Positions 3,883 through 63,073 of a DNA stretch of 64,000 nucleotides are shown here, piece after piece. A program made the position numbers and the translations under genes. The DNA lies in NCBI GenBank assembly GCA_051599415.1, contig AP039691.1, positions 1 to 64,000 of the forward strand. The letters run 5' to 3'. The DNA comes from Savitreella phatthalungensis. Taxonomy: Eukaryota. The notes beneath the pieces are model-generated. The model was given only the letters and a program-made list of their open reading frames with translations, was not told the DNA's origin and did no database searches. Numbering within the stretch: the stretch's first letter is position 1; each line of letters begins with the position of its first letter.

Positions 3883-5554
3883 GTTGACCACTGTTCCTGA
3901 TGGCCTGACGGACGGTTGTGTGTTGCACAATGTGGTATCCAGGTAGCAGGTCGATGACTTTTATACGTCTTGAGCAAGGAGTTTCTTCTGGCCAGCACAT
4001 GCCGAAACGTCGCACGACGATAGGACGCTGCCCATCTCGCTGGCTTTCGTGGCCATCAAGGGCCACGGCAATCTGGATGCCAACATCCCCAGCGAGAAGG
4101 ATGCAGGAGGGGATTTATTCACTCTGTCCGATTGACAAGCTGTAGGGGAACGTCGGCAAACCGAGCCTTCGGCGGTCGCGCACATGAGTCAAACGCGAGC
4201 TTTTGACTCGACGACAGCAACCATCCGCAGCAATTCAGAGGCGGGAATACTTTTTGCTAAGCCCCACAATGTTGTTGCTTCGTCGTGTGAGCGTGATTTT
4301 TTAGGTGCTGCTGGTCAAAACGACTCCGAATACTTTCAGCAAATGAGCCAATCAGTGAAGCCAATCGAGGCACGTTGATCCTCAAAAAACTTTGGTCCCG
4401 CCGCGGATCGCTCAAATAAGCTTTTTTAAGCTCGGCCGGCGTGACCTGTCAAAGAGAGATCCATGCGAAAATCACGGAGGAATTCGGTCTAGCCAATTGA
4501 CAGGCAGAGAGCCGGCACTCCGGCTCAAAATCAATTGTCCCAGCTCAGGCACACTGGTCTTCAAAGAGTGTTTTAGTTGCCACAGCATTTCCCAACAGTC
4601 CGTACTGAATCACGGAAGCAGACGTGGAATACGATCAACTTTGATGGTTTGCCGTCCGATCTGGGCCATACATAATATGTTCTGGTTATCCTGTACCGTG
4701 ATGGACTTCGTGCCTCTGTCGTCTTGACGCCGCAAGGGTATCCATGGCCTGGAAGACGTGCCGTTCGGCTATGCTGGTCGTCGTCACATTGAGTCCTCAG
4801 CGCTGTGAAATCGCCTACTCGCTTTGTTAGCATCAGCCACCATACCATCAACACAACTTGGTCGCAATGGTACCAAAATCTCAAGCGTGTCTCGAACATG
4901 CTTTACAAGAAATCGCTTGACCATCGCAGGTGCGCTCACGCTTCTCAAGCCCGAAGGCGAGCTCGAAGGCTGGGCTTTAGGTTTTTCTTACCGTGTTCAG
5001 CTTGAGCGAGTACTCCCTCGGCGTGCCAAGTTCTACGAGAGTGGCCGCCATGAAGGAAATTCGCAACCTTCTTCGAGTGAATGAATCATCATGACAATGG
5101 AGAATTTTGTTGTATTAAGATCCATATTGGGTACGCCCAAAGAGACTCAGGACAGCGAGGTCATGAGCCAAGGGAGCCAAGCAATTGATCGCTCTAAGAC
5201 TCGCATCCGTGGTCGCTCTGAGTGTCAACCTTGCCCGTCCGCGATCGCTTGTGTATGACCGCTTACGCTTTGCTGCCTCTTCATGCCCTTATGTTTTGAT
5301 CCGAGTGTTCCGCTTTGAAAATGAATGCTAAGCTCATCATTTCTCCGAGCTACGATGTTGTCAGGCGTCGCTGCTGTCCACGCACGGCTTGCAAGGGTCA
5401 TCCGACTCAATTAAACCACGTGTAAGGAAATGCGGTCCGCAGAGCCTGATTTCCACGGTATCACGGACATCAAAGGCAACCCACAACGAGTCAATGCCGG
5501 CTGGAAGCAGGAGCTTCTGTCTATCGCCACCGGTCTCGGTGCTCTGGCCGTCCC

Positions 5555-6520
5555 TATACAATTGTATGTGGCCCTTATCACTTCAACAATCATTCGAAAT
5601 AATATCCAGGTGAACTAAGGATTTTTTTTTGTCTATTTCGAATTGGCCTGCAAACGAAGGACGATCGATTACTGTGCTTCGCGGGAAGGACGTTCTTGTC
5701 ACAACCAGTTCAGTCATCCGGGCTGCTTGCATACAATTGTACACAATGCTGTCACTTCCGCAATCACTCAGGACTACATTTGACAAGATTAAAGAACTGT
5801 ATGGAGCTGTCAGATCGTATGGTCCGGTGCTAGGTCCGAATATTGGTGATAGATGGAGTCCATATACAGCAGGATGCGTCCTCTCATGCTCAGATTCTGT
5901 CATGTAACCTGCCACGTCAGCAGAGCCGAGACATGTGTGAGATAGGATTGGCACTGATCAGGGCCACTGGGTTGGCCGGAGCCCATGTGGTCCCTCTGTG
6001 TCTTGTGCCGGCTCAACTCCTCCGTACTGATTGGATACAGGCGTACACGACGCTGTCACTTCCGCAATCACTCGGTCTATCGATCTGTGTATGATAAAAT
6101 CGTAGCCCTGTGTGGATTTGTCAAATAGGAATGTTGTTTGCTAGATCCTGGTATTGGTGATGTCTTGCCTGCTGTCCATGTACAACGTGCTGCATTCTCT
6201 TGTGATGCCTAGGCCCAGGACTGTAGCCCTCCATGACAGCAGATGCCAGGTATATATCAGCTAAAGTATCTGTATTTGTCGCGACCACTCTGTGGCCCGG
6301 GTCGATCGTATACGGTTTGTATACAACGCCGTCACTTCCGCAATCACTTGGTCAACATATGAAAAGATAGTAGCCCCGTAAGGAGCTCTCAAGTAGTATT
6401 GTTCTGTGCTAGGTCCTGGTAATGGTATTATCTGGCATGCCGTCTCTGTGCAGCGTGTTGCGTTCTCTTGTACACCCCTGTAAACCTGCCATGTCAGCAG
6501 ATTTGTGCTATGTATCAATT
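5555..6520. repeat. Degenerate direct repeats of about 280-300 bp (3 clear copies, 1 weak)
   Basis: Exact 18-mer GTCACTTCCGCAATCACT at 5751, 6055 and 6331 with similar flanks; weaker copy near 5578. Confidence 0.8.
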
Positions 6521-7046
6521 ATAGCATGGTCGGTGTCACTGCCTAGACCGTCTTTTGTAGTCCCTCCGTGTCTGTTTGTGCTTGTTCGTGTTTCTCCGTG
6601 GTCTTCGGTGAACTTCGTCTGTGTCGCTTTGTCCGTCGCCCTCGGATCCCACCGCCGTCCTCCGCGACGAAGATCCGCCGTTCTAAGGTATTCGGGCGGA
6701 ACATCACTGCAGAAGTTTCGAATTGAAGACCGTGCTAAAGGAAAGCATCCAACATATCCGCGTCTGATCGATATCGAGCAGACTAAGAGACTGTAATTGC
6801 AGGCCGATCGCAACATTCCGAAAGCCGCAGACTTATCCGAGGCTGACAACATCCTTTGACTCGACATTTTGAACTAAATGACGCAAATGTTGTTGTATAT
6901 CTTCATGGTGCTTTTCAGGGTATCGCCTTCCGACACTTATTGAATCGGCTCAGACCCGCCTGTCTCATCGCTTCGTTGCTCGATGGGCTGCTTTCCAGAG
7001 GTGTAAAAGTGGCTAACCAGCATGAAGCGAGAATTCGGAGAAACAT
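5583..7046 (-). pseudogene. Possible decayed secreted, repeat-containing protein gene
   Basis: ATG at 7046 gives a signal-peptide-like MFLRILASCWLATFT; Cys-containing segment follows; recurring SDCGSDxxVY and GPST motifs in shifting frames with stops. Confidence 0.3.
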
Positions 7047-8532
7047 GACGGAATTATATCGAAAATTCGACGAATTGACAATTTACATGCTTGTACAACC
7101 GACTGTGATGCTGTTATTGTCAAAAGCGACAAAAAATGGCGGACAGAGTGGACTGCATGAGAGTCAATAGGTTGAAAATCGTGTTCATCTTTCCTCTTCT
7201 TCAAAATGATCTGCTACATGCGTACATTGTGGACTTGCAAAGACTTCTTGACAGATACACCATTCTGAACTGACAATGACCATCTTTTCCTGTACAGGCT
7301 TCTTGTCGCATTCGTGGATCGTTCATATCAGATTTCACTAGACTTGACTAACCTCGTAGGTCAAGTACACATATTGCACGAAGGAATCCCTATTCCCGGT
7401 CATTCTGCTCAGTGTAGATGAAGTTCTTCGAAAGGTACCAGTGGTTTCACAGGGTGCCCCGAGACCGTCTACATGTTATGCATGGACATGAGATTTGGTG
7501 TATTATTCAGGTTCGCTGTACCAATATCTTTCAGATACGGTGCAGTCTTGCTCGATTGGATACATGCTTTATGTTCTATTGAGAATTCTAATTAGCAAAC
7601 CTGGAGTGAGCAGTTGGGAAGCGTGTCATGTTCTTGCCACCAGACTGTGTCAAGTCTCCTTTTGCATCGGATTTTGGGCACGCTATAACTTATCACCAAG
7701 ACGAAGACGTAGCACAGAACTATTTTATTTGACAGCACCACACGGGTCCACAGTCTCGTCACCCGCAGACCGAGTCATTGTGGAAAAAACGGCATCTCGT
7801 TCGAGTGTTTACATTCAGCCCGGACGACTTAGCGGTCGCCACAACGCAGATATCCGAAGGCTGTACTATGTCAAAGGCACATGGACGATGGGTGCATGTG
7901 TACAAAGGAAGATGTCATGTTCCTGATTGACTGATATTGGCACAGTGCAAGCGCTGTCTTCGACGTCTGTACATGTGGCAAAAGTGGAACGGAACACCTT
8001 GTAGCGCTCAGGGATGGCTTTTTGCGCACAAATCTCGGATGAGAATGATTTTCATGTATCCTGTACACGCTGATAAGATTTTCAGGTCTAGGTATTATAC
8101 TGAGCAAACTGTAATTGTCTATCCAAAAATTTGATTGTCTCAAACATTATGCACCAAATCACTGAGCCCTATGAAATTGATAAGCATCGAACAGCCAAGT
8201 ACAATAGTCTAGACAAGCAACCTGGTCAGGGTGCAGGAATTCCTGTTATCACTCACATGCATGATTGCTGTGTTTCAAAGACTACGCTTTTCGTCTGGTT
8301 CCCCTGAGGGCGCGGTGTTGGCAAGCATGATATTTGAAAATCGCCACAAATCGAGGAATCACGGCATCGGCATCTGTCCATCGCAAGGAAAATCGCTCAC
8401 ATCCGGGGACTCGCTGCTGCTCGGCGTGACGCTCATCTTCGGCCGAAGGACACATTCGACCAGGACAGGTGATTCCGAGAAGCCTTTGCTAGGTCTTCGA
8501 TTCATATTCATTTCTTCGTAATTCTTCATTGA

Positions 8533-14009: not shown

Positions 14010-15104
14010 TCACACTTGGTCAGCTCGAGAAGCAACCTCAGGGAATGCTCTGAGGTATGGCGAGATGTCACCCCACCAAGTCTCGCCGTGGGCGCGATAC
14101 CATGCAACGGTTTTCGCCAGCCCATTTTCGAGCGTAGTCGACTGCTTCCATCCGAGTTTGTGCAACTTCGCAGCATCAACGGCGTAGCGCATATCGTTGA
14201 AAGGCCGATCGTGGGTGTGGCGAACCCAATGGGCTTGATCTTCTGTCGAGATGTCAAACGATTGCAGGAGACGAACGCACAAATCTCTATTCGAGACCTC
14301 GTCCTTTGAGCCGATGTTATATATTTCACCAACTTTGCCGAGGTGGAAGATCGTGTCAAAGGCATCTGCGGCATCTCCGGCGTATAAGTATCTGCGAGTC
14401 GGACTGCCGTCACCATGCAGCACGCACGGCAGATTGCGGGAAAGCAGCATGCAGAACTTCGGAATAATCTTTTCCGGGAATTGATGAGGACCGTACACGT
14501 TGTTCGAGCGGACAATGACAACAGGCAGCCTGAAAGACTTGTGGTAAGCATGGACAAGCATTTCAGCGGCTGCCTTTGTGGCCGCATACGGATTGGTCGG
14601 CGCCAGAATCGCCGTTTCGAGCAGATCCGCATCCCCTGCTGCAACCTCCCCATAAACCTCGTCCGTGGAAACATGAATGAAGCGCTTGATAGCAACATTC
14701 TGAGCACATTCCAGGAGGATATGCGTGCCTAGCACATTCGCTCGCGTGAAGCTGTATGAATTACCGAAGGAGAGATCGACATGAGATTGAGCGGCGAAGT
14801 GGACCACTGCATCGACGGCGTACTTGCGCAGCACGTCAAGCAGCCGATCTGCGTCTCCCACGTCCCCGCGCTCGAAAACGAAGTTCGGCTCGTTGAGAAT
14901 AGCGGCGACATTGTTCAAAGTGGCACAATAGTCAAGCTTATCGAAGCAGACGATCCTGTAGTTGTTGGCATATTGACGGACGAAATGGCGAGCCACCCAA
15001 CTACCAATGAAGCCCGCTGCCCCGGTCATAAGGATGGTCTTGATTTCAGGCCTTGGCTCGTAACGAGAGCACCCGATCAGTGCGACATCCACAGACGGCG
15101 TCAT
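14010..15104 (-). CDS. UDP/dTDP-glucose 4,6-dehydratase (RmlB-like)
   Basis: GAAGFIG, HFAAQSHVDLSF, STDEVYG, YAATK, NNVYGPHQFPEK; likely ATG at 15104. Confidence 0.94.
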   Translation of the reverse strand: MTPSVDVALIGCSRYEPRPEIKTILMTGAAGFIGSWVARHFVRQYANNYRIVCFDKLDYCATLNNVAAILNEPNFVFERGDVGDADRLLDVLRKYAVDAVVHFAAQSHVDLSFGNSYSFTRANVLGTHILLECAQNVAIKRFIHVSTDEVYGEVAAGDADLLETAILAPTNPYAATKAAAEMLVHAYHKSFRLPVVIVRSNNVYGPHQFPEKIIPKFCMLLSRNLPCVLHGDGSPTRRYLYAGDAADAFDTIFHLGKVGEIYNIGSKDEVSNRDLCVRLLQSFDISTEDQAHWVRHTHDRPFNDMRYAVDAAKLHKLGWKQSTTLENGLAKTVAWYRAHGETWWGDISPYLRAFPEVASRADQV

Positions 15105-15256: not shown

Positions 15257-16138
15257 ATGCGTGCCCTCGTATTCGGCGAGAATGGATGGATTGGTGGACA
15301 GATGATCGCGCTGCTGCGAAAAGAAGGTGTCGAGACGCACACGGCCGATTGCCGATTGGAGGATCGCGGCACAGTTCTCGAGCTGATAAAAGAAATCAGC
15401 CCTACACATGTCTTCAACTGCGCCGGCGTCACCGGTAGGCCCAACGTCGATTGGTGTGAGACTAATCAAAAGCAGACCGTGCGGTCGAACATCATCGGTA
15501 CTCTCAATTTACTCGATTGCTGTGATTTGAAAGGTATTCATGTGACGAACTTTGCCACTGGTTGCATGTACGTCTATGACGATCAGCATCCGATCAGATC
15601 TGGTAAAGGGTTCACCGAGGCCGACCCTCCGAACTTCTTCGGCAGCTACTATTCGAAGACGAAGGCAATGGCCGAAGAATTGTCCAAGGCATACGACAAT
15701 GTGCTTACGCTCCGCCTGCGCATGCCTGTTTCGGACGATCTGCATCCACGTAACTTCGTCACGAAGATTACAAAGTACGAAAAGGTGGTCGATGTGCCAA
15801 ACTCGAATTCAATCCTACATGATCTACTACCGGTGGCGATTCTGCTGGCATCTCACAGCGTCAGCGGCATCTATAACTTCACGAACCCAGGAGCAATCTC
15901 GCACAACGAGGTTTTAACCTTGTATCGTGACAAGATTGACCCTTCTTTTAAGTGGACGAATTTCTCTCTCGAAGAGCAAGCCAAGGTCATTAGAGCCGGC
16001 AGATCCAACTGCGAACTTGACACCTCCAAGCTCGAGCGAAAAGTTGCAGAGTACGGACTTACGATCCCTGAAGTTCATCTGGCCTACAATGCATGTTTCG
16101 ACCGCCTTAAAGCGACGGCGCAAGAACACAGAGACTGA
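15257..16138 (+). CDS. NDP-4-keto-6-deoxyglucose 3,5-epimerase/4-reductase (NRS/ER type, rhamnose synthesis)
   Basis: GENGWIG, AGVTGRPNVDWCE, GSYYSKTK, LRLRMP, NFTNPGAISHNE, RSNCELD motifs. Confidence 0.93.
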   Translation: MRALVFGENGWIGGQMIALLRKEGVETHTADCRLEDRGTVLELIKEISPTHVFNCAGVTGRPNVDWCETNQKQTVRSNIIGTLNLLDCCDLKGIHVTNFATGCMYVYDDQHPIRSGKGFTEADPPNFFGSYYSKTKAMAEELSKAYDNVLTLRLRMPVSDDLHPRNFVTKITKYEKVVDVPNSNSILHDLLPVAILLASHSVSGIYNFTNPGAISHNEVLTLYRDKIDPSFKWTNFSLEEQAKVIRAGRSNCELDTSKLERKVAEYGLTIPEVHLAYNACFDRLKATAQEHRD

Positions 16139-16867
16139 AGTTCAGATTCTCTCCTTCTGAAGCAGACATCGCAATGAAAGAGCGAACACTCGCGAGGGCT
16201 TTATCTGACAGAACATCTTCATCGGAATCTAGCGAGCAACGGCCAATCGGCCCCGGTTGACCGCCATCCAGTTCGTAAAATTGATTGTTGCTGTTTGACT
16301 TGACAAAGGCGACAAAGTGGAGGTTCACATCTGCTTCTGCGTCGATCGGCGCCGACTGACCGTGCGAGGCGACATCGTTGTGTGCATTCAGAATGAGTTT
16401 CGACGCCTCGATCATTGTCACCCGCGTGCTCATGGGTTCGCGCTTCAATGAGTGTGTAAACTTCAAGAACTCGCTGTCAAGCTCAAGTGTCTGCTCGTTA
16501 TTTACCAAGGCATGCAAAATCGCCATCTGTGTGCCAATCAGTCAATCTGTAGATGAGCTTCGACAGGTGTCAGACTTACAGTGCCACACGCATTTCCGAT
16601 CGTTTGCTTCAGCCAGATGACATGTTCGGTATCCGATCTTTCCGATACGCCGCAACTTTGCCTCTCATTCTCAAGCCTTCGCCGCTCGTAGCTTTCCGTG
16701 ATTGGAAATATCATAATGAGTGCGAGAGCAGGTCGAGGCACGTAGGACAATAGTTCCGGATCGTCCAGTGAGTAGACATCTTGAAAAGCGAATTTACGGT
16801 CTAGATTCAGCTTGTAAGCCAGTTCAGTGAGCACTTCTGGATTGTTCTCGAGTGGCCTGACACGCAT
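16107..16867 (-). CDS. YUH1: Ubiquitin C-terminal hydrolase (peptidase C12), 2 exons, intron 16527-16579
   Basis: PLENNPEV, QTIGNACGT (Cys), LHFVAF (His), YELDG (Asp); GTAAGT...CTGAT...CAG intron joins the two ORF-track fragments in frame. Confidence 0.9.
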
Positions 16868-17220
16868 TGCGCGAGAATAAGTCACGATACGAAACAATCA
16901 GAAACTACAGGCTTGACCGCGATGAGCAGTGGCCTTCTCGCCAAATTGCTTGCGGTTGAGTGTGAATAATCGATCACGTTCTGGTAGTCAGAGTCTTCAA
17001 ATTACAGGAGATGCAAGATACGCTTGATCAGACGAAAAATTGATCTCATGCGGGGCCGGCCTTAATACGTCATCCATCACGCTCAAGGTCGCTTCCCCTG
17101 ATCACAGGGCAGCTGTCGTTACACAGTCGTCAATCGACTTCTCCTATCCTGCGGTCCACAAGCCCGATGCGGGTTGCAAATTCGAGAGATCTAGAAAGTT
17201 TGTCTTCGCAGGCCATCATC

Positions 17221-17494
17221 ATGGACCCTTACGCCACGAAGATAAGCATGACTTCAACACCAGTGAGGGATGGGAAAGAGGAGACCGCATGTGCGCAAGA
17301 TGCATCAGCCACAAACACTCTCACGCTGAGCTCGGACGCTCAGATTGATCGCATGCGTGGCGGCTGCATACCATGGTAAGAAGCAGAACTGCATAGGCAA
17401 TTTCGAGGGCAAGACGTGTCGCACAAATGCTGACTTTACCGGCAGTCCAGACGGCGGTTGCTGTTACATCATCCCGATCCCATGCTGTTGCTGA
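17221..17494 (+). CDS. 67-aa microprotein with RMRGG motif and Cys-rich (CYSTM-like) tail, intron 17376-17445
   Basis: GTAAG...GCTGAC...CAG intron; spliced product ends QIDRMRGGCIPCPDGGCCYIIPIPCCC*. Confidence 0.75.
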
Positions 17495-18475
17495 CGACAG
17501 CCTGTTCAAGGCTCAGCCTCCTGCAGAACGTCGAACGCGGTCACGTGCCATTGTCATCCGAAAGACTCTTCTCGTTCGGCACGAGGCCGCATTGATTCTT
17601 GCATTTGGTTTTTGCAGCCGTACATATTCAATATCGATTCCATGAAATTTGCGCGATTGACACTGTGAAACTTCCGCACCTTGAACGCTTGAGGCCGAAA
17701 GTCCCATCGGTACTCACTGAGGGTGATCTGGCCCGGTTGTAAGGTAGGATGAGTTGGGAACAGGCAATATTTGTCTTGCCAGACTTAACACATCTCTGTA
17801 TACATGATCAGGGCTCAATGGGGCTTTCCATCGATGAGTGTATGCATATTGTCAAAGTTAGGTCACGTGCTCCCGCGCCGAACGAAGATCTATGCGAGAA
17901 CAGCATCAGTGATTATTCATGTACATGACATACTCAAACGATATACATGTCATTTACACAGGTACGTCGTGTAGCGTAACTCAGAACGTCGATCATTTTG
18001 ACAAGCTTTGCTACGACATACACGTGGTATACATGGGTAGCGTACGGATGCTATATGTTGTCTTATAGGGTAGAAACGTAATGGGGTGTCGGCTAATTGA
18101 ACGTGGTATGCAGATGAAGCATTTTCAAGTGACCAAGGCTTGTCAAGCGTCCACCGGAACCTCGAGCCCTAAACGGCGCGATATTGGTAGGATTTTATCA
18201 TCAATAATTTGCTGATCGTGAATAGTGCACTCGTGGTCAGCGATGTGGACTGTGGGAAATGATCATGCACTGAAAATTTCAGGCACTTGGACACGTGATG
18301 ACTGCTTGTCATTCGCAGCCAGTCTGGGGCGCGTAGCAGGACTCAGCGCGATTGCACTCCGTCTTGCTATCACTCATGGTAACGGACTCCAGCAACAGCG
18401 GCCTGCCTCCAGTCGTGCGTGTACACCAACAATTGAGAAGAAGGTGACTGGAATATAATCTGGATATCTGCCAAG

Positions 18476-18871
18476 ATGGCTGCCTCAGCGCCTCATGTGC
18501 CAATCGTCAAGAAGCGCACCAAGCGCTTCAATCGCTTCCAAAGCGACCGTTTCATGCGTGTCGGTGCATCTTGGAGAAAGCCCAAGGGTATCGACAATCG
18601 TGTCCGTCGGAGGTTCAAGGGTACAATGGTTATGCCCAGCATCGGCTTCGGCTCAAACAAGAAGACCCGCCACATGATGCCATCCGGCCACAAGGCCTTC
18701 CTGGTTCGGAATGTGAAGGATGTTGAGCTTCTTCTAATGCACTCGAAGACCTACGCAGCAGAAATCGCCAGCAGCGTATCATCCAAGAAGCGCATCGACA
18801 TCATTGCCAAGGCAAAGCAACTCAATGTCAAGGTGACAAACGACACGGCGAAGGTCAGGAGCCAGGAGTAA
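18476..18871 (+). CDS. RPL32: 60S ribosomal protein L32 (eL32)
   Basis: [17 protein letters not shown] and [17 protein letters not shown]. Confidence 0.98.
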
Positions 18872-19106
18872 AGTGACTGATTGCGAAATAACAAGCGACC
18901 TGACGACCTGGCGCTGCGATCGGCTTTTCTGGCTGAGAACAATAGCTTCTTACTTATGACATGCACTTTCATATTGAACTCATCCGTCGGCGCATTTGAA
19001 TTGTCTTACGTGTTTCAGCTCTGCGACTGACCAGATCCATAAAGACAGTATTTGTGCGCGCGCACATATTGACAAACAGGTAGCACACTGAATTGTTGCG
19101 AGCACG

Positions 19107-20281: not shown

Positions 20282-21436
20282 ATGTCCTCGACACAGGCGT
20301 CGCTGACCATCAAAGCATCCAACGACAAGAAATACCACATTCAAATTGCCCTCTCAAGAACAGTCGCCGAGCTCAAGACTGAAATCGCTGAGGTCAGCTC
20401 CATCTCGGCCGACAAGCAACGCCTGATCTACTCTGGCCGCATTCTAAGCAAAGAAGATGAATCTCTCGAAGGCTACAGAATCAAGGATGGCAACACAATC
20501 CATCTCGTTCAGAGCAGGGGCGCGACAACTCCTTCGACTACGAACAGTGGGGCTGCAGACACGTCCAGGGATGTGAACCCGACGATCCAAGGTACAACAC
20601 AGATACCCATGGCTGCAGGAACAGGCAATGCAAACCCTCTTACCGGTCTGACCGGCGCGCGTTACGCTGGCCAAGTCGGCTTACCGTCTGCATCGATGTT
20701 TGGTGCAGACGGCGGCATGACGGGTTTTCCGGGTGGCATCGACAACCTGGAAGAGATGCTTTCTCAGCCTGGAGTTCGAGAGGCTATGGATGCTGCGTTC
20801 AGCAACCCGCAATTCATCGACATGATGATGGCCTCAAACCCCCAATTGCGCGACGCTCCCCCATACGTTCGACAAATGCTTCAATCAGAGCAATTCCGGA
20901 GGCAGATGCTAGACCCGGCGTTTCTGCGGCAGATGCAGCAAATGCAACAGATATTCGGTGGCGGCTCGTCGACAGCTAGTGCTTCATTCCCGGCTCCGGG
21001 CAGTACAGATGGCTCGGCAGCTACGTCCTCAGCAAGTGGAGCGCAGACGTCGGATGGATCGAGCGAATTCCCCGCACAAGCCAATGATATAGGAGCGCTT
21101 CTCGGAGCCTTGGGGCGCATGCCTTCCAGCCAGCCAACTCATACAGGTCCAGCGGGTGGCGGAACTCAACAAGCGACAACGTCCTCCTCTTCCAACAGCT
21201 TCCCTCAGCTCGGTGACCCGGCAATGTTGGGATTCTTACATGCTATGGCCAATAGAGAGGGAATTACATCGTCGGCGCAAGGGGACACGAGACCTGTGGA
21301 AGAGCGCTTCGCGGATCAATTGCGTCAGCTGAACGATATGGGATTCTTCGAATTTGATCGCAACGTTGCTGCACTGCGCAGGTCCGGCGGAAGTGTCCAA
21401 GGTGCTATCGAAGCTCTCCTCAATGGTAGTGTCTGA
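20282..21436 (+). CDS. DSK2: Ubiquilin (UBL-STI1-UBA shuttle factor)
   Basis: N-terminal UBL (QRLIYSGRIL), STI1-like NPQ segments, C-terminal UBA (QLRQLNDMGF). Confidence 0.94.
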   Translation: MSSTQASLTIKASNDKKYHIQIALSRTVAELKTEIAEVSSISADKQRLIYSGRILSKEDESLEGYRIKDGNTIHLVQSRGATTPSTTNSGAADTSRDVNPTIQGTTQIPMAAGTGNANPLTGLTGARYAGQVGLPSASMFGADGGMTGFPGGIDNLEEMLSQPGVREAMDAAFSNPQFIDMMMASNPQLRDAPPYVRQMLQSEQFRRQMLDPAFLRQMQQMQQIFGGGSSTASASFPAPGSTDGSAATSSASGAQTSDGSSEFPAQANDIGALLGALGRMPSSQPTHTGPAGGGTQQATTSSSSNSFPQLGDPAMLGFLHAMANREGITSSAQGDTRPVEERFADQLRQLNDMGFFEFDRNVAALRRSGGSVQGAIEALLNGSV

Positions 21437-21498
21437 AGATCGATTTTAAATTTATTTCTTCAGAAAAATGTGTCACACAATTCGCTTCCTACAAGATC

Positions 21499-22998
21499 AT
21501 GTCTACTCGAGTGGGAGTCCTGGCATTGCAAGGTGCCTTCGCTGAACACGTTGCGGTGCTGGAAGAGTTTCAAGACATCAAAGCGCTTGAGGTTCGAACT
21601 ATCGAAGAACTCTCGGGGCTCGACGGCTTGATTATTCCAGGAGGAGAATCAACCGTCATCGGAAAGCAGCTCCAAGCATCGGGTCTCGGTGTCGCGATCA
21701 AGCGACTTATTCAGCAAGGCACGCCAGTATATGGCACATGTGCAGGTCTGATCCTGCTATCAAACTCCCTGCGCGCCGTCAGCGGGAAGCAGGGCGGCCA
21801 ATACCTGATTGGTGGTCTAGATGTCGACCTGGAGCGCAATTACTTCGGGCGCCAGATCAACTCGTTTGAGGCCCAAGTGGACACTGAGTGTCTTGGATCG
21901 GAGCCCTTCCACGCCGTGTTCATACGGGCCCCAGCAATACACGGTCTGCTATCCGATCAAGTACACACCCTGGCCACAATCGAGCACAACGCACGGCGTG
22001 TGATTGTGGCTGTCCGGCAAGGCAATCTGATTGGCACTGCGTTCCACCCAGAATTGACGAAGGACAAGCGTTGGCATGAGTACTTCCTGAGATTGGTCCG
22101 GGAGGCGAAGTCTCCAGGTGTCCTCCTGAAGACCCACATGCCGGGACTCAAGCTCGTTGCACAAGGTAAGGTGCGCGATATCTATGAAGTGGACGACCAG
22201 AGTCTACTGTTCGTGACGACCGATCGAATGTCCGCGTATGACGTTATCATGCAGAATGGGATACCAGGTAAGGGCAAGATTTTGACGCAACTTTCTGAAT
22301 TCTGGTTCGAGAAATTGAGTGGGATCTGTCAACATCACCTGCAAACCACAGATGTAGCGAAAATGCCCCGCGCTGTACAGAAACACGCCGCTCAGGTACG
22401 AGGTCGAGCAATGTTAGTGAAGCGACTTCGCGTGCTGCCAGTTGAGGCCATCGTGCGCGGCTTCATAAGTGGGTCGGCGTGGAAAGAGTATCGATCGCGC
22501 GGGACAGTCCATGGCATACAAATGCCAACAGGGATGCAAGAATCTCAGGCCTTCCCCAAGCCGATCTTTACTCCTAGTACGAAGGCTGAGCAGGGCGACC
22601 ACGATGAGAACATCCATCCGGATGCAGTGGCTGGAATCATCGGATCAAAGCACGCGGAGAGAATGGCCGAACTTGCTATCAGCCTCTATACGGCCGCCAG
22701 GGACTGGGCCGCATCGCGGGGCATCATCATCGCCGATACAAAGTTCGAGTTCGGCGTGGACGAGAATGACGAGCTCGTGCTGGTCGACGAAGTGTTGACG
22801 CCGGATTCTTCTCGCTTCTGGCCCGCTGCCTCTTATCAAGTGGGTCGCAGTCAGGAATCGTTTGACAAACAGTACTTGCGAGATTGGTTGACAGCAAACG
22901 GAATCGACAAGAAAGATGGCGTGAGCATGCCCGATGACATTGTCCAGCGCACCGTCGAAAAGTATACCCAAGTACTGCATCTCATCATTGATGCCTAG
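21499..22998 (+). CDS. Fusion of PLP synthase glutaminase (Sno1/PdxT) and SAICAR synthetase (Ade1/PurC)
   Basis: Residues 1 to about 203: GVLALQGAF, PGGEST, GTCAG, RNYFGRQ, FIRAP, FHPE. Residues about 208-499: GKVRDIY, TDRMSAYD, FTPSTKAE, IADTKFEFG, DEVLTPDSSRFW, DKQYLRDWL. One uninterrupted ORF. Confidence 0.93.
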   Translation: MSTRVGVLALQGAFAEHVAVLEEFQDIKALEVRTIEELSGLDGLIIPGGESTVIGKQLQASGLGVAIKRLIQQGTPVYGTCAGLILLSNSLRAVSGKQGGQYLIGGLDVDLERNYFGRQINSFEAQVDTECLGSEPFHAVFIRAPAIHGLLSDQVHTLATIEHNARRVIVAVRQGNLIGTAFHPELTKDKRWHEYFLRLVREAKSPGVLLKTHMPGLKLVAQGKVRDIYEVDDQSLLFVTTDRMSAYDVIMQNGIPGKGKILTQLSEFWFEKLSGICQHHLQTTDVAKMPRAVQKHAAQVRGRAMLVKRLRVLPVEAIVRGFISGSAWKEYRSRGTVHGIQMPTGMQESQAFPKPIFTPSTKAEQGDHDENIHPDAVAGIIGSKHAERMAELAISLYTAARDWAASRGIIIADTKFEFGVDENDELVLVDEVLTPDSSRFWPAASYQVGRSQESFDKQYLRDWLTANGIDKKDGVSMPDDIVQRTVEKYTQVLHLIIDA

Positions 22999-23431
22999 TT
23001 ACAGCGCTTCGGGCAGCATGAGATGTAAAGAGATGTTCGAGGCTGATCGTACTGCCGATGACTGGCTGCTGTGAATTCTGCATAGCTTGTAGCATATTAG
23101 GGCGATCGCGCTCATCCCAGACCCATATTCCCCAGATCTCCTCCTCCTTGGAACGATGAATTATGTAGCCCTCGGACTCCAGGACATCAAGCGGAGACTC
23201 CACAATCCGTGCGAAACACTCGAGCGCGATTCGATTCAGAATGCGATAACCGCACTTTCCCTCGAGTGTCCTGTATACGAAGAAAGTACCTTCGAACTGG
23301 CACTTCGCCCACGCTTGTTGATTGACGTCGTAGGTATAAAGAACGACGTAAGGGCTTGATGCCAGGATCTCTCGGATGCTAGCGTCCTGTTTCCGGAGTA
23401 CGCGCAGATTTAGCTCGTCTCTCGCGTCCAT
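22985..23431 (-). CDS. DCP1: mRNA decapping activator subunit (EVH1 fold)
   Basis: LNLRVLRKQD, YVVLY, WAKCQFEGTFFVY, ILNR, IWGIW. Confidence 0.9.
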   Translation of the reverse strand: MDARDELNLRVLRKQDASIREILASSPYVVLYTYDVNQQAWAKCQFEGTFFVYRTLEGKCGYRILNRIALECFARIVESPLDVLESEGYIIHRSKEEEIWGIWVWDERDRPNMLQAMQNSQQPVIGSTISLEHLFTSHAARSAVTRHQ

Positions 23432-23563: not shown

Positions 23564-24733
23564 ATGTCGTCCTTTGCTGCGCGCAACCACAATTTCTTAC
23601 GACAAGCTCGATCGGCAGTCAAAGTAGCTTTGTACACAATCGTTGGCTTCAGTGGAATTACTTTGACCGGTTTTGCCGGTGTGCACGGCTTCCTGGAGAC
23701 TCAGTCTCCCACGCCGGGTAGCTGGTCGCGCGAGTCTCGATTTGCTTATCGGGCCGCACTCTTTAATGCGCGGTACCTCGATCAGCCATTGATGGCTCGC
23801 GAATACATGCACAGGGCGCTGGAGACAGTCTACGAGACCAACTCCCAGACGAATACTTCCGCGGAACGCGCAGCCACCGCACGTTTGTTGATCTTGCTTG
23901 GGGACCTCTACAAAGATGCGCAGAATTTCGAGGCAGCTCAAGAATACTATGTTGCAGCGTCGCAGGTCGCTCTAGACTTTCGACACTTGCTAGGTGCAGC
24001 AGAGCGACGTCATGGCGAGCTGTTAGAGCATACAGGGGATGTGTCGAAAGCGCGAACGTCGCTATTACGTGCCATCAATCTATTGCTCCCGCCCGTCGAC
24101 CGGACAGTTCGGGACAGCCCAGGTCAATTAGAGTCGTGGAAGGATTCGGCCCGGCTCAGTACGATCAGCATACCACCTGATCTGCCGTATGATGCGGAGC
24201 TCGCGAGGGCGCTAGTTTCGTATGCTCTGCTCACTGCACGGGGTGGTGGGCTGGAGAATGGCCTGGCAATTCTACTCAGTGTTTTGCGATATCAGCAGAC
24301 ACGCGGAGATCAGCATACGCATTCATCAAGCATGATGTCGATCTTGTGGACCTTGGCGACCGGTGCCACGGCCCGTAATGCGGATGACGATGCTCTCTGG
24401 TTGCCGACCGCTCGGCTGGTATGCGAAGAGGCGAGCACGATGTGTAACATTGCGGAGGTTGCGAACAAACTCGGCTATGCCGCTGAAGCCGAACGTTGGA
24501 TGCATCAGGCGCTACGACAGAGTCAGGATCAGAAGCACAAAGCTGATATTCACTGCTCAAGATGTGCTATAATAAGCTTGAACATGCTGGGTATATCGTC
24601 GATGAAGCACGGCGATCAAGAGACAGCTCTCCAATACATGAGGCGAGCCATGATCATTGCGGAGCAGATTGAGGATGAGTCGCTCCTACAGGAGACAGAG
24701 ACCAACATACGGCACAGTCAACCTGCAAAATAG
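23564..24733 (+). CDS. TPR-like protein, probably mitochondrial inner membrane (Mgr3-like)
   Basis: Basic presequence-like N-terminus, TM segment, TPR-like helices (LGDLYKDAQNFEAAQEYY). Confidence 0.6.
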   Translation: MSSFAARNHNFLRQARSAVKVALYTIVGFSGITLTGFAGVHGFLETQSPTPGSWSRESRFAYRAALFNARYLDQPLMAREYMHRALETVYETNSQTNTSAERAATARLLILLGDLYKDAQNFEAAQEYYVAASQVALDFRHLLGAAERRHGELLEHTGDVSKARTSLLRAINLLLPPVDRTVRDSPGQLESWKDSARLSTISIPPDLPYDAELARALVSYALLTARGGGLENGLAILLSVLRYQQTRGDQHTHSSSMMSILWTLATGATARNADDDALWLPTARLVCEEASTMCNIAEVANKLGYAAEAERWMHQALRQSQDQKHKADIHCSRCAIISLNMLGISSMKHGDQETALQYMRRAMIIAEQIEDESLLQETETNIRHSQPAK

Positions 24734-24745
24734 TATCGACTCGTC

Positions 24746-27529
24746 CTACGTTGAGCCGATCATTGCAAACCCCGCGGAAACTTGTTTATTCAGGATGTCG
24801 TAATCCGAACCGAGGACCGCCATTACCTGGTCGAATGGTCGACACACAGCGCGATCCAGCTTTTGAGCCAGCAATGCCCGGGCCACTGATTTTGCCACTC
24901 TACAGGCAGCAGTCTCAGCATTAGTGCGCTCGTCCTCTGTCGACATTGTGCTTTGTCTCCCCTGTGTCGCTTCGATCCCTTCCGCTGAGTCGCTTTCCGA
25001 TTCTGCATTGTCAGCTGTATCATCTCCTAGATGCTCTGGCCATTCAAGATGCGGCATCTTTTTGTGATTAATTTTCGCAAAAGACGAGACTTTTGAGCAG
25101 AGTACCCTCCAGGTCTGCTTCTGTGCTCTAGCAGCCAGCGGTCGCTCCAGGCGACCCAACATACACGAGTCGGTCGATGGCAACAAAGCAGCAAGTCGAG
25201 CCATCATAGTTTCCAGATCAAGCACGAAACAGACAAGCTCCTCGTCATCGTCGATTAATCTTGACTCGAGGCGCTGTAGCACGAGATCCCGTCGATCGAT
25301 GACATCCTTGAGATCGTTGTGATCAATGCCGAACCGAGATGTAGCAAGACGCTGCACGCGCCATAAGAAGTACGCCAACAGACCTCGACAAGCGAGCTTC
25401 CGATGGCGCGGCAACTCTTCGTCGATATACGAAACGACTTTATCGAACAATGTCGGCTGATCTTCGACCCATTCGGCACTGTGATCATTTGCAAAAGTCA
25501 TCGTGGCGATACGCAAGAGCGATGTCTCCGATGGGCGGATCTCGTGCAAGATTTCAAGGCGGACAGTGTTGAAAATCTGCGCCATCTTGTCCTGGGCGAC
25601 TGTGATGAGCAGCTGCTGCTCGCACATGTGCATCATGACAGCAGCAGCGAGGTTGAGCACCTGTTCGTCGCGGAAGCCGAGGAAGATATCACCCACGTCG
25701 GACATTAAGTTTGTGATCACATCGAGCTGAAATTGCTCAGTCAAGCTGCAAAGATCGATTTTGTGCAAGGTTGCGAGAATACTCACCGTGGCCGGAACTG
25801 AGTTGAGGCACTTCAGGAGTTTAGACGCTGAAGCAATGAAGTCAAAACAGCATCCCGGCGCGCTTTGCTGCTTGTCGCTGCTAGTGCGCGTCATGTAAGC
25901 GCCAAGCACTCGAAGCATTGCAAGTTGCTCTTCGCTAGACAATCGGTTCTGTCCGGCACTCTGATCATCCATGCTCAGCGCTTGCAGAATCCGGCTGGCG
26001 TCAAGATTGTCAAGATGAGGGATTATCGACGAAGCCGCTACTTCGCTCGCCGAAGTATCGCCGAAGCCGCTGACGCCACCAATGGGTGCCAGTCGCTGAG
26101 AAGGGGTTCTTTCCAGATCGGCAAACAGCTGCGCAAGAACCTTGATCCTGTGAACGGCGTCGTGACCAAGCTTCTTTTTATATTGCGAAACATGATTCTC
26201 CCAACGCTCATCGAGAACACCGGCGAAGAGAGCGGCGGCAGCCTCGCGCACACGCAATTCTGCATCATACAGATTCAGCAGAAGCGTCTTGACTTCCCCC
26301 TCATTTAAGAACCCTCGCTCGCGGAGACTCTGTGCAAGGAAAAGCACTTTTGAGCGTACGCTCGAGTCTGCATCTGAGGAAGCCATCTCTAGTAGTCGCG
26401 CCTTGAACTTGCTTGTGAAATGGCGCAAACCAGCCACATAGTCGTCCATTGCGTACAGAGCGGGAAGCAATTTCACCGCGGCCATACGAACCTGATGGGC
26501 TGGATCGGACAATTGCCAACCGACATACCTCAGGTAAGCGCCATCGTAGAAGACGCCGGGCAAGCGAGTCATCCAGTCGCCCAGCGCCTTGATGCAGTCT
26601 GTCCGGATGTGCCAGTCTACGTCACGATATCGGTGCACGAAGATCTCGTCAATCAGGTTTCCGACTGTAGTCTTCAATGTTTGAACAAGCTCTGTCTTTG
26701 TGTCGCGGGTATGACTCAACTGCGTCTGGCGGCTATGTGCTGTGTTGCCTTTGCGTTGGGCTGACTCGATCTTTGCATTGCATCCACTAATCTCGCTTTC
26801 CAACGCAGCGATGCGATCGACAAACGCTGTTATACACTGTAGGGCAAATGTTGTCGCACTGTGTCTGAAAGACCTTAAATTCGCGGCAGACATGCTGCTT
26901 ATCCACTTCTCGACGACGTCAAAGAAGCTCTGTTCGTCCTCATTTGGTGCGACGATGAGCTCACGATCGACAATTTGATTTGTAAGCTGTCGCACGAACG
27001 ACGGCAAGGTCTTTCGAAGCGTCCGGAAATGTTTTTCCATGGAAACGAGCGGATAAGTTGCGCCACCTATAGCATGGCCCGTGCTATCTGTCGTTATCAA
27101 ATTTTCCTGGATTTGCGCCAATGTGTCCCGTGCAGAATCGCTGTCCTGGACGTCAAATGCCGTGATATTGTGTCGCGAGCCGGCGATACGCAGCAGACAA
27201 TTGACAAGCTCAGCTAGCGTATCGTGAGGCGACGACTGGAAAGCATCCAGCACGTCCGCCGCGGTCGTCGACGCTGTAGAATCGGGATCTAGCAGCGATG
27301 TAAAGATTTCATTGTCGTTCAGGACCTCGTTATGACGATCTTCGAGCTCGGAGGCTGACGGAGCGGTCTTGCTGCGCTTGCGCTGCGCGGCAATGACGCT
27401 CGTCTTGCCGCGTTTGCGCCCATCGAGAGTGTTGCTCTGGAGCTGTGCGCCGTTGGATCGCTCCATCTCTTGTAGAATTGGTACACGGATGCGCTGTGAA
27501 CGCCGCGGGTTCCTCGATACACTCGACAT
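24746..27529 (-). CDS. Cohesin STAG/Scc3-family subunit (Psc3 or Rec11 type)
   Basis: LRSFRHSAT, FVHRYRDVDWHIRTDCI, YLRYVGWQLSD. Confidence 0.92.
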   Translation of the reverse strand: MSSVSRNPRRSQRIRVPILQEMERSNGAQLQSNTLDGRKRGKTSVIAAQRKRSKTAPSASELEDRHNEVLNDNEIFTSLLDPDSTASTTAADVLDAFQSSPHDTLAELVNCLLRIAGSRHNITAFDVQDSDSARDTLAQIQENLITTDSTGHAIGGATYPLVSMEKHFRTLRKTLPSFVRQLTNQIVDRELIVAPNEDEQSFFDVVEKWISSMSAANLRSFRHSATTFALQCITAFVDRIAALESEISGCNAKIESAQRKGNTAHSRQTQLSHTRDTKTELVQTLKTTVGNLIDEIFVHRYRDVDWHIRTDCIKALGDWMTRLPGVFYDGAYLRYVGWQLSDPAHQVRMAAVKLLPALYAMDDYVAGLRHFTSKFKARLLEMASSDADSSVRSKVLFLAQSLRERGFLNEGEVKTLLLNLYDAELRVREAAAALFAGVLDERWENHVSQYKKKLGHDAVHRIKVLAQLFADLERTPSQRLAPIGGVSGFGDTSASEVAASSIIPHLDNLDASRILQALSMDDQSAGQNRLSSEEQLAMLRVLGAYMTRTSSDKQQSAPGCCFDFIASASKLLKCLNSVPATVSILATLHKIDLCSLTEQFQLDVITNLMSDVGDIFLGFRDEQVLNLAAAVMMHMCEQQLLITVAQDKMAQIFNTVRLEILHEIRPSETSLLRIATMTFANDHSAEWVEDQPTLFDKVVSYIDEELPRHRKLACRGLLAYFLWRVQRLATSRFGIDHNDLKDVIDRRDLVLQRLESRLIDDDEELVCFVLDLETMMARLAALLPSTDSCMLGRLERPLAARAQKQTWRVLCSKVSSFAKINHKKMPHLEWPEHLGDDTADNAESESDSAEGIEATQGRQSTMSTEDERTNAETAACRVAKSVARALLAQKLDRAVCRPFDQVMAVLGSDYDILNKQVSAGFAMIGST

Positions 27530-29091: not shown

Positions 29092-30570
29092 ATGAAGATC
29101 GATAAGCTCTCAGCACTTTTGGATGATATTCTGGATGATCTCAGTGCGCGATTCATCATTAATCTGCCGGACAGCGAGTTGTCCTCTGTGACTCGCGTTT
29201 GTTTTGGGCTCGAGCAGGCACACTGGTTCTACGAGGACTTCTATCGGCCGCGACACCCGGAGCTGCCATCGGTGAATCTGCGCGCATTCACATCCGCTCT
29301 TTTCTCCCACTGTCCGCTGTTGTGGAAATTCAGCGGGGAATTGGAGAGCGCCTTTGATGATTTCTTAAGATATAAAGTACGTGTACCGATCCGCGGTGGC
29401 ATTCTGCTGAACAGCGCGCTCGACAAGTGCGTGCTTGTCAAAGGTTGGAGCAAGGGAGCTGGCTGGGGATTTCCTAAGGGCAAGATCGATCAGCAAGAGG
29501 ATGACGCTGCATGTGCCGTGCGCGAAGTCTTCGAGGAGTGTGGCTTCGATGTTTCGGCATATGTGCTTCCAAATGAGTTCATTGACGTCGTTATGAAGGA
29601 GTCGAGAATGCGCCTTTACATCATACCAAATGTGCCGGAGGACACTCGTTTTGAGCCACAGACGCGGAAGGAGATCTCTAGAATCGACTGGTTTTCCTTG
29701 GACAGCCTTCCAACTTATGCGAAAACTGGCACCGACGCAGCCAGTAAGAATAAATTCTATATGGTCGCACCATTCATGGTCCCGTTACGCCGCTGGATCA
29801 AGCGGAATCGCCGCAAGGTTGTGGTGAACCCCACAGTGCCCAATAGAGAAGACGACAGGCCTCAAAAGCTCGTCCTAGAAGATACGGAACACAACGAGAA
29901 CGTCCTTCACGAGGCCCCGGTAAATGACCACGCTTCAGTTGCCCTGAAGCTGCTGCTCGGAATTGGAAACGGCATGCATTCGTCAGAACCATTGCAGAAA
30001 TCAGGTCAGAGATCTAGCCGGTCAACAAACGAGCCCCTTCGTGATGATACAAGGTTGTCTGCCCAGCAGCAGACCACGGCAGCCGATGCTGCTTTGCGAG
30101 GAGAAGCTCTGGGCATGCAGGCAAGCGACACCTCTGGGTCATTGTTGGCATTGCTACAGACGGGCCAGAAGAATTTCAAGGCGACGCCTCCTGGAGTCCC
30201 TGCCATCGCCACTTCGGATCATGGAAAGTCGCTTCTGGGGCTGCTAGATCCTTCTCTCGGTGCGACCAGCCAATCTGCAACGCAACACCCGAACATTCCT
30301 TCCAGCGATCGATCCATGCCGATTCGCGTATCACAGAGGTCCACAGCTGCACCGGCCGAAGAGCAATGGCAGAGCCTGCTCTCTCTTCTACGAGGTGGTA
30401 GTCCGATGCAGCACCCGCCGGCGGTCAATCTTAGGACGAGAGAAATCCAGAGGCCCAAGCCTGAGACTGGAACAATCAAGCATTCCTCAGAAGAACCTTC
30501 GACAGTCACCGGTAGCGCGACCGATGCACTTCTGCTCGACTACCTGCAACAGGCAGTCAGTCGAATGTAG
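29092..30570 (+). CDS. DCP2: mRNA decapping enzyme catalytic subunit
   Basis: Box A (LDDLSARFIIN, EQAHWFYEDF), Nudix box GKIDQQEDDAACAVREVFEECG, disordered tail with LLxLL helical motifs. Confidence 0.95.
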   Translation: MKIDKLSALLDDILDDLSARFIINLPDSELSSVTRVCFGLEQAHWFYEDFYRPRHPELPSVNLRAFTSALFSHCPLLWKFSGELESAFDDFLRYKVRVPIRGGILLNSALDKCVLVKGWSKGAGWGFPKGKIDQQEDDAACAVREVFEECGFDVSAYVLPNEFIDVVMKESRMRLYIIPNVPEDTRFEPQTRKEISRIDWFSLDSLPTYAKTGTDAASKNKFYMVAPFMVPLRRWIKRNRRKVVVNPTVPNREDDRPQKLVLEDTEHNENVLHEAPVNDHASVALKLLLGIGNGMHSSEPLQKSGQRSSRSTNEPLRDDTRLSAQQQTTAADAALRGEALGMQASDTSGSLLALLQTGQKNFKATPPGVPAIATSDHGKSLLGLLDPSLGATSQSATQHPNIPSSDRSMPIRVSQRSTAAPAEEQWQSLLSLLRGGSPMQHPPAVNLRTREIQRPKPETGTIKHSSEEPSTVTGSATDALLLDYLQQAVSRM

Positions 30571-38904: not shown

Positions 38905-39882
38905 CTACTTGCGGCTACCATATGATTCGCCCTGCTTTTCCACGGTCTTGCCCTCGACGCGATTTTGCATCCGATCCCCGTCGTTCAGCTGATAGCAATT
39001 GATACCTACCATTGCCTCTCCCAGATTAGTAGACACTTCGACGAGTTTGTCGGCGTCCCGGAAATGTGTGGTCGCCTGCACGATGGCGGCGGCGCGTTGA
39101 GCGGGATTTCCAGACTTGAATACGCCCGAGCCAACAAACACGCCGTCTGAGCCTAATTGCATCATCAGGGCGGCATCAGCAGGTGTAGCAATGCCACCTG
39201 CAGCAAAATTGACCACAGGTAGTCGCCCGAGCTCCTTGACCTTGCGGACAAGATCTATTGGCGCCTGGATCTCCTTTGCGAAGACATACAGCTCCTCGTC
39301 CGACATATTCTGACAGCGACGAATGTCTGCTTGCATTATACGCTGATGCTTCACAGCTTCGATCACGTCGCCTGTTCCAGGTTCTCCTTTGGTGCGGATC
39401 ATTGCCGCGCCCTCGGAGATACGCCGCAGTGCTTCGCCGAGATTTTTTGCACCGCAGACGAAGGGAACTTTAAAAGGATGTTTGTGAATGTGGTTGACGG
39501 GGTCAGCCGGAGTGAGGACCTCCGACTCGTCAATATAATCTACACCACATGCTTGAATGATCTGTGCCTCGACGAAGTGGCCGATTCGGGCCTTTGCCAT
39601 GACTGGAATCGTCACCGCTTCAACAATCTCCTTGATCATGGAAGGATCGGACATACGTGCGACGCCACCTTGCGCACGAATGTCAGCAGGCACTCGCTCA
39701 AGAGCCATGACTGCGCATGCGCCGGCCTCTTCTGCAATGCGTGCTTCTTCTGCATTTGTAACATCGCAAATTACACCACCTTTGAGCATCTGAGCTAGGC
39801 CGGCCTTCACGGTCCAATTCTCAATTCCAGTAGCATCAACGCCGTTGGTGACAACATTGGTAGACTTGCTGACTCCGTTCAT
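38905..39882 (-). CDS. SNZ1: PLP synthase synthase subunit (PdxS/Pdx1)
   Basis: [48 protein letters not shown]. Confidence 0.97.
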
Positions 39883-62473: not shown

Positions 62474-62504
62474 GAGTCGAGTCGAGTCGAGTCGAGTCGA
62501 GTCG
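62474..62504. repeat. (GAGTC)6 microsatellite
   Basis: Perfect pentamer array. Confidence 0.9.
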
Positions 62505-63073
62505 TTCCATTGCAATTGAGACGACTGCTTACGTGCGATTCTGCCATCGGTCGAAATCAAACATGATGTAAACGGCTTTGTAGAGTCTATCATGCACGAT
62601 CCCTTGCTCGAGCTACGACTTTGCTGGGCGTCGGCTCCTGAATAAAATGTAACATGAGCTACGTGTACGCAAAGGCATTTACGGACACTTGTGGAATCCA
62701 GGTCATGCCGAGCTTCTCGGTAAACTCAGCAGTATGCCTTTCTGATACATACTGTACGCCTTGCGAGCGCTTGAGCCGCAAGGCTTTGATCATGAATCAT
62801 CTTTTCGAGCCAGGTACCATTCGGTACTTGTGCTTGAGACGGTATGCGAAGTATTACCATGGCCCACGCTCACTCACCCACTGAACCATTTATTTCCTGC
62901 ATGTTGGGTGGTCATTTTCCGTCACCTTGGGAGTACGCCACGGGAATCCTTTCCTTTTGACGATACGATCTCATGTGATTGCACTCGACAGAACGACAGT
63001 GCACATCTAGCCTCTAGTAGCAGAAGTCTCGGTCTGTGATACATTGAGGCACAAATCGAGAAAATCTCGAGAA

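Follow-up and report, generated by a model that had tools for sequence, protein, structure and literature searches.

Can an enzyme of vitamin B6 synthesis and an enzyme of purine synthesis be joined in a single polypeptide, and would such a fusion mean that the two pathways are coupled? The question is raised by a locus in the first 64,000 nucleotides of contig AP039691.1 of Savitreella phatthalungensis (assembly GCA_051599415.1), a stretch referred to below as the window. An earlier note on this DNA had described a 499-residue open reading frame (ORF) in which PdxT (Sno1), the glutaminase of pyridoxal 5'-phosphate (PLP) synthase, runs into Ade1, the yeast-type phosphoribosylaminoimidazole-succinocarboxamide (SAICAR) synthetase. 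We found that profile hidden Markov models (HMMs) of both families matched end to end inside this one uninterrupted ORF on the plus strand (21499-22998). The gene is made up as follows.

21499-22998, plus strand: coding sequence of the PdxT/Sno1-Ade1 fusion, 499 residues plus a stop codon, with an ATG start, in the standard code and with no intron needed
21499-22110, plus strand: PdxT/Sno1/Pdx2 class I glutamine amidotransferase domain, residues 1-204, assigned from HMMs, alignment to solved PdxT chains, and fold
22111-22125, plus strand: junction or linker, residues 205-209 (SPGVL), without a stop or a frameshift
22126-22995, plus strand: yeast-type SAICAR synthetase (Ade1/PurC) domain, residues 210-499, assigned from HMMs, alignment to 1a48, and fold

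To identify the two halves, we compared the protein with the Pfam and NCBIfam models. The N-terminal half matched the Pfam family SNO (PF01174) over residues 7-200 (profile 1-186 of 188, E = 7e-49, 166.7 bits against a cut-off of 27) and the NCBIfam PdxT model (TIGR03800) over residues 4-197 (profile 1-183 of 184, 199.9 bits against 105.55). The C-terminal half matched Pfam SAICAR_synt (PF01259) over residues 220-469 (E = 2e-79, 267.1 bits against 20) and the NCBIfam yeast-type PurC model (PRK13961/NF010568) over residues 209-497 (profile 5-292 of 297, 408.8 bits against 251). At such E-values chance matches are of no concern, and the sequences assign the two halves unambiguously to their families, PdxT/SNO and SAICAR synthetase. 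The first half contains Cys81 within the motif GTCAG (codon 21739-21741), together with His183 (22045-22047) and Glu185 (22051-22053) within FHPE (22045-22053). These three residues, which we take to be the catalytic triad of class I amidotransferases, align with the GTCAG and FHPE motifs of solved PdxT chains (131-147 bits). Thus, HMMs and alignments confirmed what the earlier note had claimed, namely a single 499-residue ORF with an intact triad and the motifs of SAICAR synthetase.

Two other identities were considered and rejected. A bifunctional purine enzyme of the PAICS type was set aside because the fusion protein had no match to the aminoimidazole ribonucleotide (AIR) carboxylase domain at E <= 0.01; the same Pfam scan detected neither AIR carboxylase (PF00731) nor a PurS domain. 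PurQ, the glutaminase of formylglycinamidine ribonucleotide (FGAM) synthase, was likewise dismissed, as none of the 17 NCBIfam matches was named PurQ or FGAM synthase. Among those 17, PdxT was the sole amidotransferase model above its cut-off, while CobQ, CobB, and HisH fell far below theirs. The halves are also alike in composition. Their GC contents were 0.555 and 0.536 and their GC contents at third codon positions (GC3) were 0.597 and 0.616, all within the range of 19 neighboring ORFs, and the codon usage of both halves fell inside the range of the same ORFs. With tblastn, no second copy of the fusion protein was found elsewhere in the 64-kb window.

How closely the two domains adjoin could be read from the alignments. 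Homology to solved PdxT chains extends to residues 204-206, and residue 4 of yeast Ade1 (1a48) aligns at residue 210, so the linker between the domain homologies is about five residues long, in keeping with the few residues that had been claimed for it. The earlier note had also maintained that Ade1-like sequence begins upstream of an internal methionine, and this was borne out, with homology from residue 210 and the methionine at 214. That position is occupied by Met in 3 of 13 fused sequences (the window protein and the 12 homologs described below) and by Val or Leu in the other 10; Met214 is therefore not a conserved alternative start. The segment from Val200 to Thr212 is 11-34 residues long across the family, has 19-38% identity to the window protein, and is in frame in 13/13 sequences. 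A pattern of this kind marks a free linker that connects two domains under constraint and differs from what a sequencing slip would produce. Bacterial models found no bacterial-type terminator and three promoter-like sites where 1.3 were expected, a result that is not relevant to a eukaryotic host.

To characterize the family to which the fusion belongs, we searched 5.8 billion clustered proteins, scored 8000 candidates, and considered the best 120. Among these, at least 12 homologs of 510-548 residues carry both Pfam domains, and they are 57-71% identical to the window protein over 98-99% of the query. They derive from ENA, Logan, and JGI assemblies, and none had an NCBI or UniRef source in the searches made. 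Members of the family's clusters lie on contigs of up to 141 kb, and a Pfam scan of two such members (P0510 and P0511) found both domains. The fusion is therefore not peculiar to one genome; the family is common to Protomyces-like fungi. In an alignment of 13 rows (the window protein and the 12 fused homologs), 195 columns are invariant. They include the triad (Cys81, His183, and Glu185), GGEST, and GKVRDIY, and invariance in 13/13 also holds for ERNxFGRQ in PdxT and for the motifs of Ade1 that bind ATP and carboxyaminoimidazole ribonucleotide (CAIR). Against the window protein, the SNO halves are 57-67% identical and the Ade1 halves 65-77%. Within the family, the mean pairwise identities of the two halves are 72.8% and 73.4%, meaning that they are conserved to a nearly equal degree.

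Sequencing runs provided a second line of evidence on the junction. In a run from another study (X6), a contig of 226 nt spans 21940-22165, including the junction, with no gaps and one synonymous change. Sequence across the junction was one of the checks that the earlier note had proposed, and this contig bridges it without an insertion or deletion. Contigs of two further runs (X3 and X5) cover parts of the gene outside the junction and bear on it neither way. Taken over the contigs of X3, X5, and X6, there are six differences from the window, all at third codon positions, although at a depth below 5 a single difference may be an error. Five of the six are synonymous, and the sixth changes Asp367 to Glu, both of which occur at that column of the family. 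With 12 homologs carrying both domains and an independent contig running across the junction, the fusion is genuine and not the product of a stop codon lost in this assembly alone.

In what lineage does this gene occur? The host looks like a compact, intron-poor, yeast-like fungus of the Taphrinomycotina that is related to Protomyces and Taphrina. The window is gene dense, with long uninterrupted ORFs and 52% GC, and contains fungal-type genes that include a fungal bestrophin, a HAM1-like protein, Dcp1 and Dcp2, and Erg9. The closest named relatives of its squalene synthase are from Protomyces lactucae-debilis and Taphrina deformans (61% identity) and Saitoella complicata (60%), versus approximately 50-53% for Pezizomycotina. 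We then placed the Ade1 half in a phylogeny of 43 rows, built with a quick search from the 13 fused sequences and 30 named stand-alone proteins selected from the matches among the clustered proteins. The 13 fused rows formed one group (92 in the Shimodaira-Hasegawa-like approximate likelihood ratio test [SH-aLRT]), sister to Saccharomycotina plus Pezizomycotina inside the ascomycete clade (SH-aLRT 100). On these sequences, this branching is the position expected of Taphrinomycotina. The grouping within the family is compatible in the trees of both halves: P0002 and P0003 pair, the window protein lies near them, and the rest fall together. Because both half-trees group the family compatibly, the data fit one old fusion followed by vertical inheritance.

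The best short match to the SNO half leads to a named relative. It is ORY75488.1/XP_040722361.1, annotated as "PdxT/SNO family, partial" from Protomyces lactucae-debilis. The protein has 209 residues, stops exactly at the domain boundary, lies on a 180-kb contig, and is 59% identical to the SNO half from the window. Against the N-terminal half of a fused homolog (P0006), its identity is 89% over all 209 residues. We infer from these comparisons that ORY75488.1 is probably a truncated public model of the same fused gene. Because this record breaks off before the Ade1 part, public annotation does not reveal the fusion.

To see how widely SAICAR synthetase has been joined to other domains, we made a HMMER pass over 1.84 billion representatives at 50% identity and considered the best 150. 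Among these, the query was the sole protein with both halves. A Pfam scan of the 13 proteins of at least 450 residues among the best 150 found SNO in none. Their architectures were AIR carboxylase with SAICAR synthetase; SAICAR synthetase with PurS; duplicated SAICAR synthetase; SAICAR synthetase alone with an unassigned N terminus (P0358); and SAICAR synthetase with a class I tRNA synthetase domain, an AI-2E transporter, or sigma-70 regions. As far as these searches reach, the pairing of SNO with SAICAR synthetase thus appears to be confined to one family. A metagenome scan, whose patterns lay in the SNO half, retained 80 of 550 confirmed loci; all of these match residues 1 to approximately 229, the PdxT part alone, and none was fused.

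Some of the proteins met in the searches are unusual in their own right. In P0251, P0255, P0281, P0253, and P0369, SAICAR synthetase is accompanied by a tRNA synthetase (Trp/Tyr), AI-2E, sigma-70, or EF-hand pair on its N-terminal side or by an acylphosphatase on its C-terminal side, and some of these may be miscalled adjacent genes. P0241, a SAICAR synthetase of 507 residues, contains an exact internal duplication of approximately 150 residues and is probably an assembly artifact. Three SAICAR synthetases labeled "MAG: Planctomycetes bacterium" (P0032, P0077, and P0096), MAG being a metagenome-assembled genome, are 57-64% identical to the fungal type and fall among early-diverging fungal rows in the Ade1 tree; contamination of the MAGs or transfer between domains of life is possible.

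A glutaminase of this kind works with a synthase subunit, and a gene for such a partner lies in the same window.

38905-39882, minus strand: PdxS/Snz1/Pdx1 synthase subunit, 325 residues (SOR_SNZ, E = 1.8e-109)

Alignment of this protein gave 454 bits with Arabidopsis PDX1.3 and 398.5 bits with yeast Snz1. Its gene is 16 kb from the fusion, not adjacent to it, and is flanked by ORFs for a Y-family polymerase and a UTP10-like protein. In Saccharomyces cerevisiae, SNZ and SNO are divergent neighbors, an arrangement not seen in the window.

We modeled the fusion alone and together with this partner. The AlphaFold2 model of the fusion, made from an alignment of 72 rows, had a mean predicted local distance difference test score (pLDDT) of 93.8 and a predicted template modeling score (pTM) of 0.76. 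In this model, coil connects the C-terminal helix of PdxT (residues 191-204) to the Ade1 half, whose first strand begins at residue 218. With Foldseek, the PdxT half matched PdxT chains of PLP synthase complexes at template modeling (TM) scores of 0.92-0.96, and the Ade1 half matched yeast SAICAR synthase at 0.90-0.92. None of the PDB chains listed by Foldseek covers both halves (best TMq, 0.56). The complex of PdxS with the full fusion protein was modeled with a score of 0.80, while the best of three controls reached 0.00. Of 78 solved complexes, 51 reach the mark applied to such models, as do 2 of 108 mismatched pairs. At least 76% of contacts were shared between runs, with a partner pLDDT of at least 85. 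Solved PdxS-PdxT complexes exist (e.g., 2nv2 and 4wxy), so the pass may reflect structures that the predictor has learned; it shows likeness and not binding. The confident contacts of the fusion all fell in residues 9-186 and none in the Ade1 half; on the side of PdxS they involved the N-terminal helix region and residues 268-276. Structure prediction with PdxS, another check proposed in the earlier note, hence puts the predicted docking on the PdxT half alone, with the partner encoded in the same window.

The fusion sits in a tightly packed part of the window. Two short features define its borders.

21437-21498, no strand: spacer of 62 bp between the stop codon of a ubiquilin/Dsk2-like ORF (20282-21436, same strand) and the ATG of the fusion
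22985-22998, no strand: 14-bp overlap of the 3' end of the fusion with a convergent Dcp1-like ORF (22985-23431, minus strand)

With convergent packing this tight, the 3' untranslated regions must overlap as antisense. Two more convergent ORF pairs were observed in the window (24733-24746 and 54857-54860), with a gap of 12 bp or an overlap of 4 bp.

What, then, does the fusion do, and how did it arise? We consider it quite probable that the locus is a genuine bifunctional gene passed on vertically within a lineage of Taphrinomycotina that includes Protomyces-like fungi, that both activities have been kept, and that the joining is a by-product of gene packing without coupling of the two pathways. 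The PdxT half would dock by its usual face on PdxS, hydrolyze glutamine, and hand the ammonia to PdxS for PLP synthesis. The Ade1 half would act as an ordinary SAICAR synthetase, using CAIR, aspartate, and ATP to make SAICAR, and would project outward, attached to the free C-terminal helix of PdxT by a short linker under no constraint. Under extreme gene packing, a stop codon and a short spacer may have been lost between SNO1 and ADE1 as tandem neighbors, and the product would have been tolerated since both enzymes still fold and work. The expected consequences would be equimolar co-expression and a passive tethering of Ade1 to PLP synthase. To our knowledge, the PdxT and PurC reactions have, by established biochemistry, no substrate or intermediate in common, and channeling between the halves would presumably be absent. 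The fusion is most likely a packing by-product because the reactions share no substrate, the linker is unconstrained, the pairing arose once, and the packing is extreme. The "B6-purine metabolon" put forward in the earlier note was conjecture, and computation did not support cooperation of the two enzymes.

Several points weigh against the favored reading. The loss of a stop codon would presuppose that SNO1 and ADE1 were once adjacent in tandem. Stand-alone paralogs of SNO1 or ADE1 may exist elsewhere in the genome, and an internal start site or internal polyadenylation may yield separate products from the fused gene. Among the best 120 short matches to residues 1-206, all named ones were bacterial except for the Protomyces model. 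Furthermore, selection for coupling, rather than neutrality, could explain why the fusion has survived in homologs as distant as 57% identity with neither half impaired in sequence. This last point is the best argument for a different hypothesis, which we judge unlikely: twelve Ade1 domains carried on the PdxS dodecamer would link purine and B6 synthesis, and selection would have kept the link. The routes proposed for such coupling are a shared draw on ribose-5-phosphate and glutamine, or allostery via SAICAR, ATP, or aspartate. Because the Ade1 half lies away from the PdxS interface in the model, its display would be sterically plausible for the heterodimer, and PDB record 9cca is described as a 12-chain PLP synthase whose PDX2 bears a foreign fused segment. 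However, the variable length and low identity of the linker (11-34 residues, 19-38%) speak against a fixed geometry between the domains, and the two reactions have no substrate or intermediate in common. The occurrence of SNO with SAICAR synthetase in one family alone among the best 150 representatives likewise argues that the pairing has not arisen repeatedly. It is improbable to the same degree that, in Protomyces-like Taphrinomycotina, PLP synthase forms a 12 + 12 particle with twelve active SAICAR synthetase domains around its rim, the covalent link being selected and tying vitamin B6 output to purine flux. If that were true, it would represent an unusual cross-pathway assembly and a natural case of two unrelated pathways on one enzyme scaffold.

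The bacterial names among the short matches could instead mean that the SNO half is a Chloroflexota-type pdxT that was acquired horizontally and became expressed after landing in frame before ADE1, which we regard as unlikely, and somewhat less likely than coupling. The bacterial matches come from MAGs of Caldilineaceae/Chloroflexi at 53-56% identity and 208-228 bits, and no further named fungal Sno1 among the best 120 reaches 208 bits. The nearest Protein Atlas clusters of the SNO part are bacterial and archaeal PdxT, which is a lead only, the Protein Atlas having given no usable match to the whole fusion protein. Other eukaryotic Pdx2/Sno1 proteins probably share the motifs that let these bacterial sequences score well, which would count against transfer. 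In a tree of 95 rows, where fungal Sno1 is represented by the fused/Protomyces family alone, the 14 fused/Protomyces rows form a group of their own (SH-aLRT 99) on a long stem of 1.16 changes per column. The Chloroflexi rows are a separate clade (SH-aLRT 100) in which the fused group is not nested, and the SNO half resembles neighboring ORFs in GC, GC3, and codon usage. That one half is catalytically dead and persists as a structural or regulatory remnant is very improbable, given that the catalytic and binding motifs are invariant in 13/13 sequences, that the halves are about equally conserved, and that both score far above their family cut-offs. An artifact, be it faulty assembly, a stop codon erased by a sequencing error, or a chimeric contig, is effectively refuted. 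Run X1, alone in spanning the entire stretch, may be where the window came from and so is not independent of it. Nevertheless, the contig from the other study crosses the junction without a gap, composition is uniform over the junction, and 12 independent homologs share the continuous ORF but differ in their linkers.

Among known systems, the PdxT half is like PdxT/Sno1/Pdx2 of Bacillus subtilis (2nv2) and Geobacillus stearothermophilus (1q7r and 4wxy) in its triad, its fold, and the predicted N-terminal face for PdxS. While known PdxT is a free subunit of approximately 200 residues, here its C-terminal helix runs straight into an unrelated enzyme of 290 residues. The Ade1 half scored 358.8 bits to S. 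cerevisiae Ade1 (1a48; also 2cnq), with residues 4-296 of 1a48 aligning to residues 210-493 and 54-56% identity in structural alignments. Yeast Ade1 is a stand-alone chain of 306 residues, whereas in the fusion its N terminus is covalently joined to PdxT. Animal PAICS (AIR carboxylase with SAICAR synthetase, 6yb8) and the bacterial SAICAR synthetase-PurS proteins illustrate that SAICAR synthetase tolerates covalent partners at either end. In contrast to those partners, which belong to the purine pathway, the partner in the fusion belongs to vitamin B6 synthesis. A fusion of functionally unrelated partners, although of different genes, appears to be found in another member of the Taphrinomycotina. 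Aco2 of Schizosaccharomyces pombe is reported to join an aconitase to a mitochondrial ribosomal protein, with a truncated mRNA made by internal polyadenylation (10.1101/2019.12.16.879015).

A literature search, supplements aside, found no description of a fusion of SNO/PdxT with SAICAR synthetase, in line with the earlier note, whose author knew of none. The terms fusion, fused, pyridox, and purine were absent from the genome paper on T. deformans (PMC3648899) and from PMC12866564, and a Protomyces preprint (10.1101/594028) used "fusion" for reporter constructs only. A search for a 6-azauracil phenotype of snz/sno mutants found nothing, and no argument is built on that link. What is new appears to be a lineage-specific domain architecture of two textbook enzymes that, to judge from the sequence searches, is apparently absent from named protein records.

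This architecture has several implications. Protomyces-like genomes probably contain gene models in need of correction, as the sole named relative is a truncated "partial" model. The locus is also a cautionary case, in that "Rosetta-stone" reasoning from the fusion would wrongly link B6 and purine synthesis. Within the Taphrinomycotina, the fusion could possibly be used as a clade marker. The apparent tolerance of PdxT for a C-terminal cargo of 33 kDa is relevant wherever PLP synthase is to serve as a display scaffold, and the gene as a whole is relevant to the fixation of fusions in highly compact genomes of fungi.

Other parts of the window yielded minor observations. Three intervals (3883-8532, 16139-19106, and 60617-63073) contain no ORF of at least 200 residues; genes that are short or have introns may lie there. 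The decapping partners Dcp1 (PF06058; 22985-23431, minus strand) and Dcp2 (box A and NUDIX; 29092-30570, plus strand) are encoded within 6 kb of each other. In addition, a GDP-mannose 4,6-dehydratase-like ORF (14010-15104, minus strand) and an epimerase/RmlD-like reductase ORF (15257-16138, plus strand) form a divergent pair, which is a candidate for a GDP-6-deoxyhexose (fucose or rhamnose) pathway.

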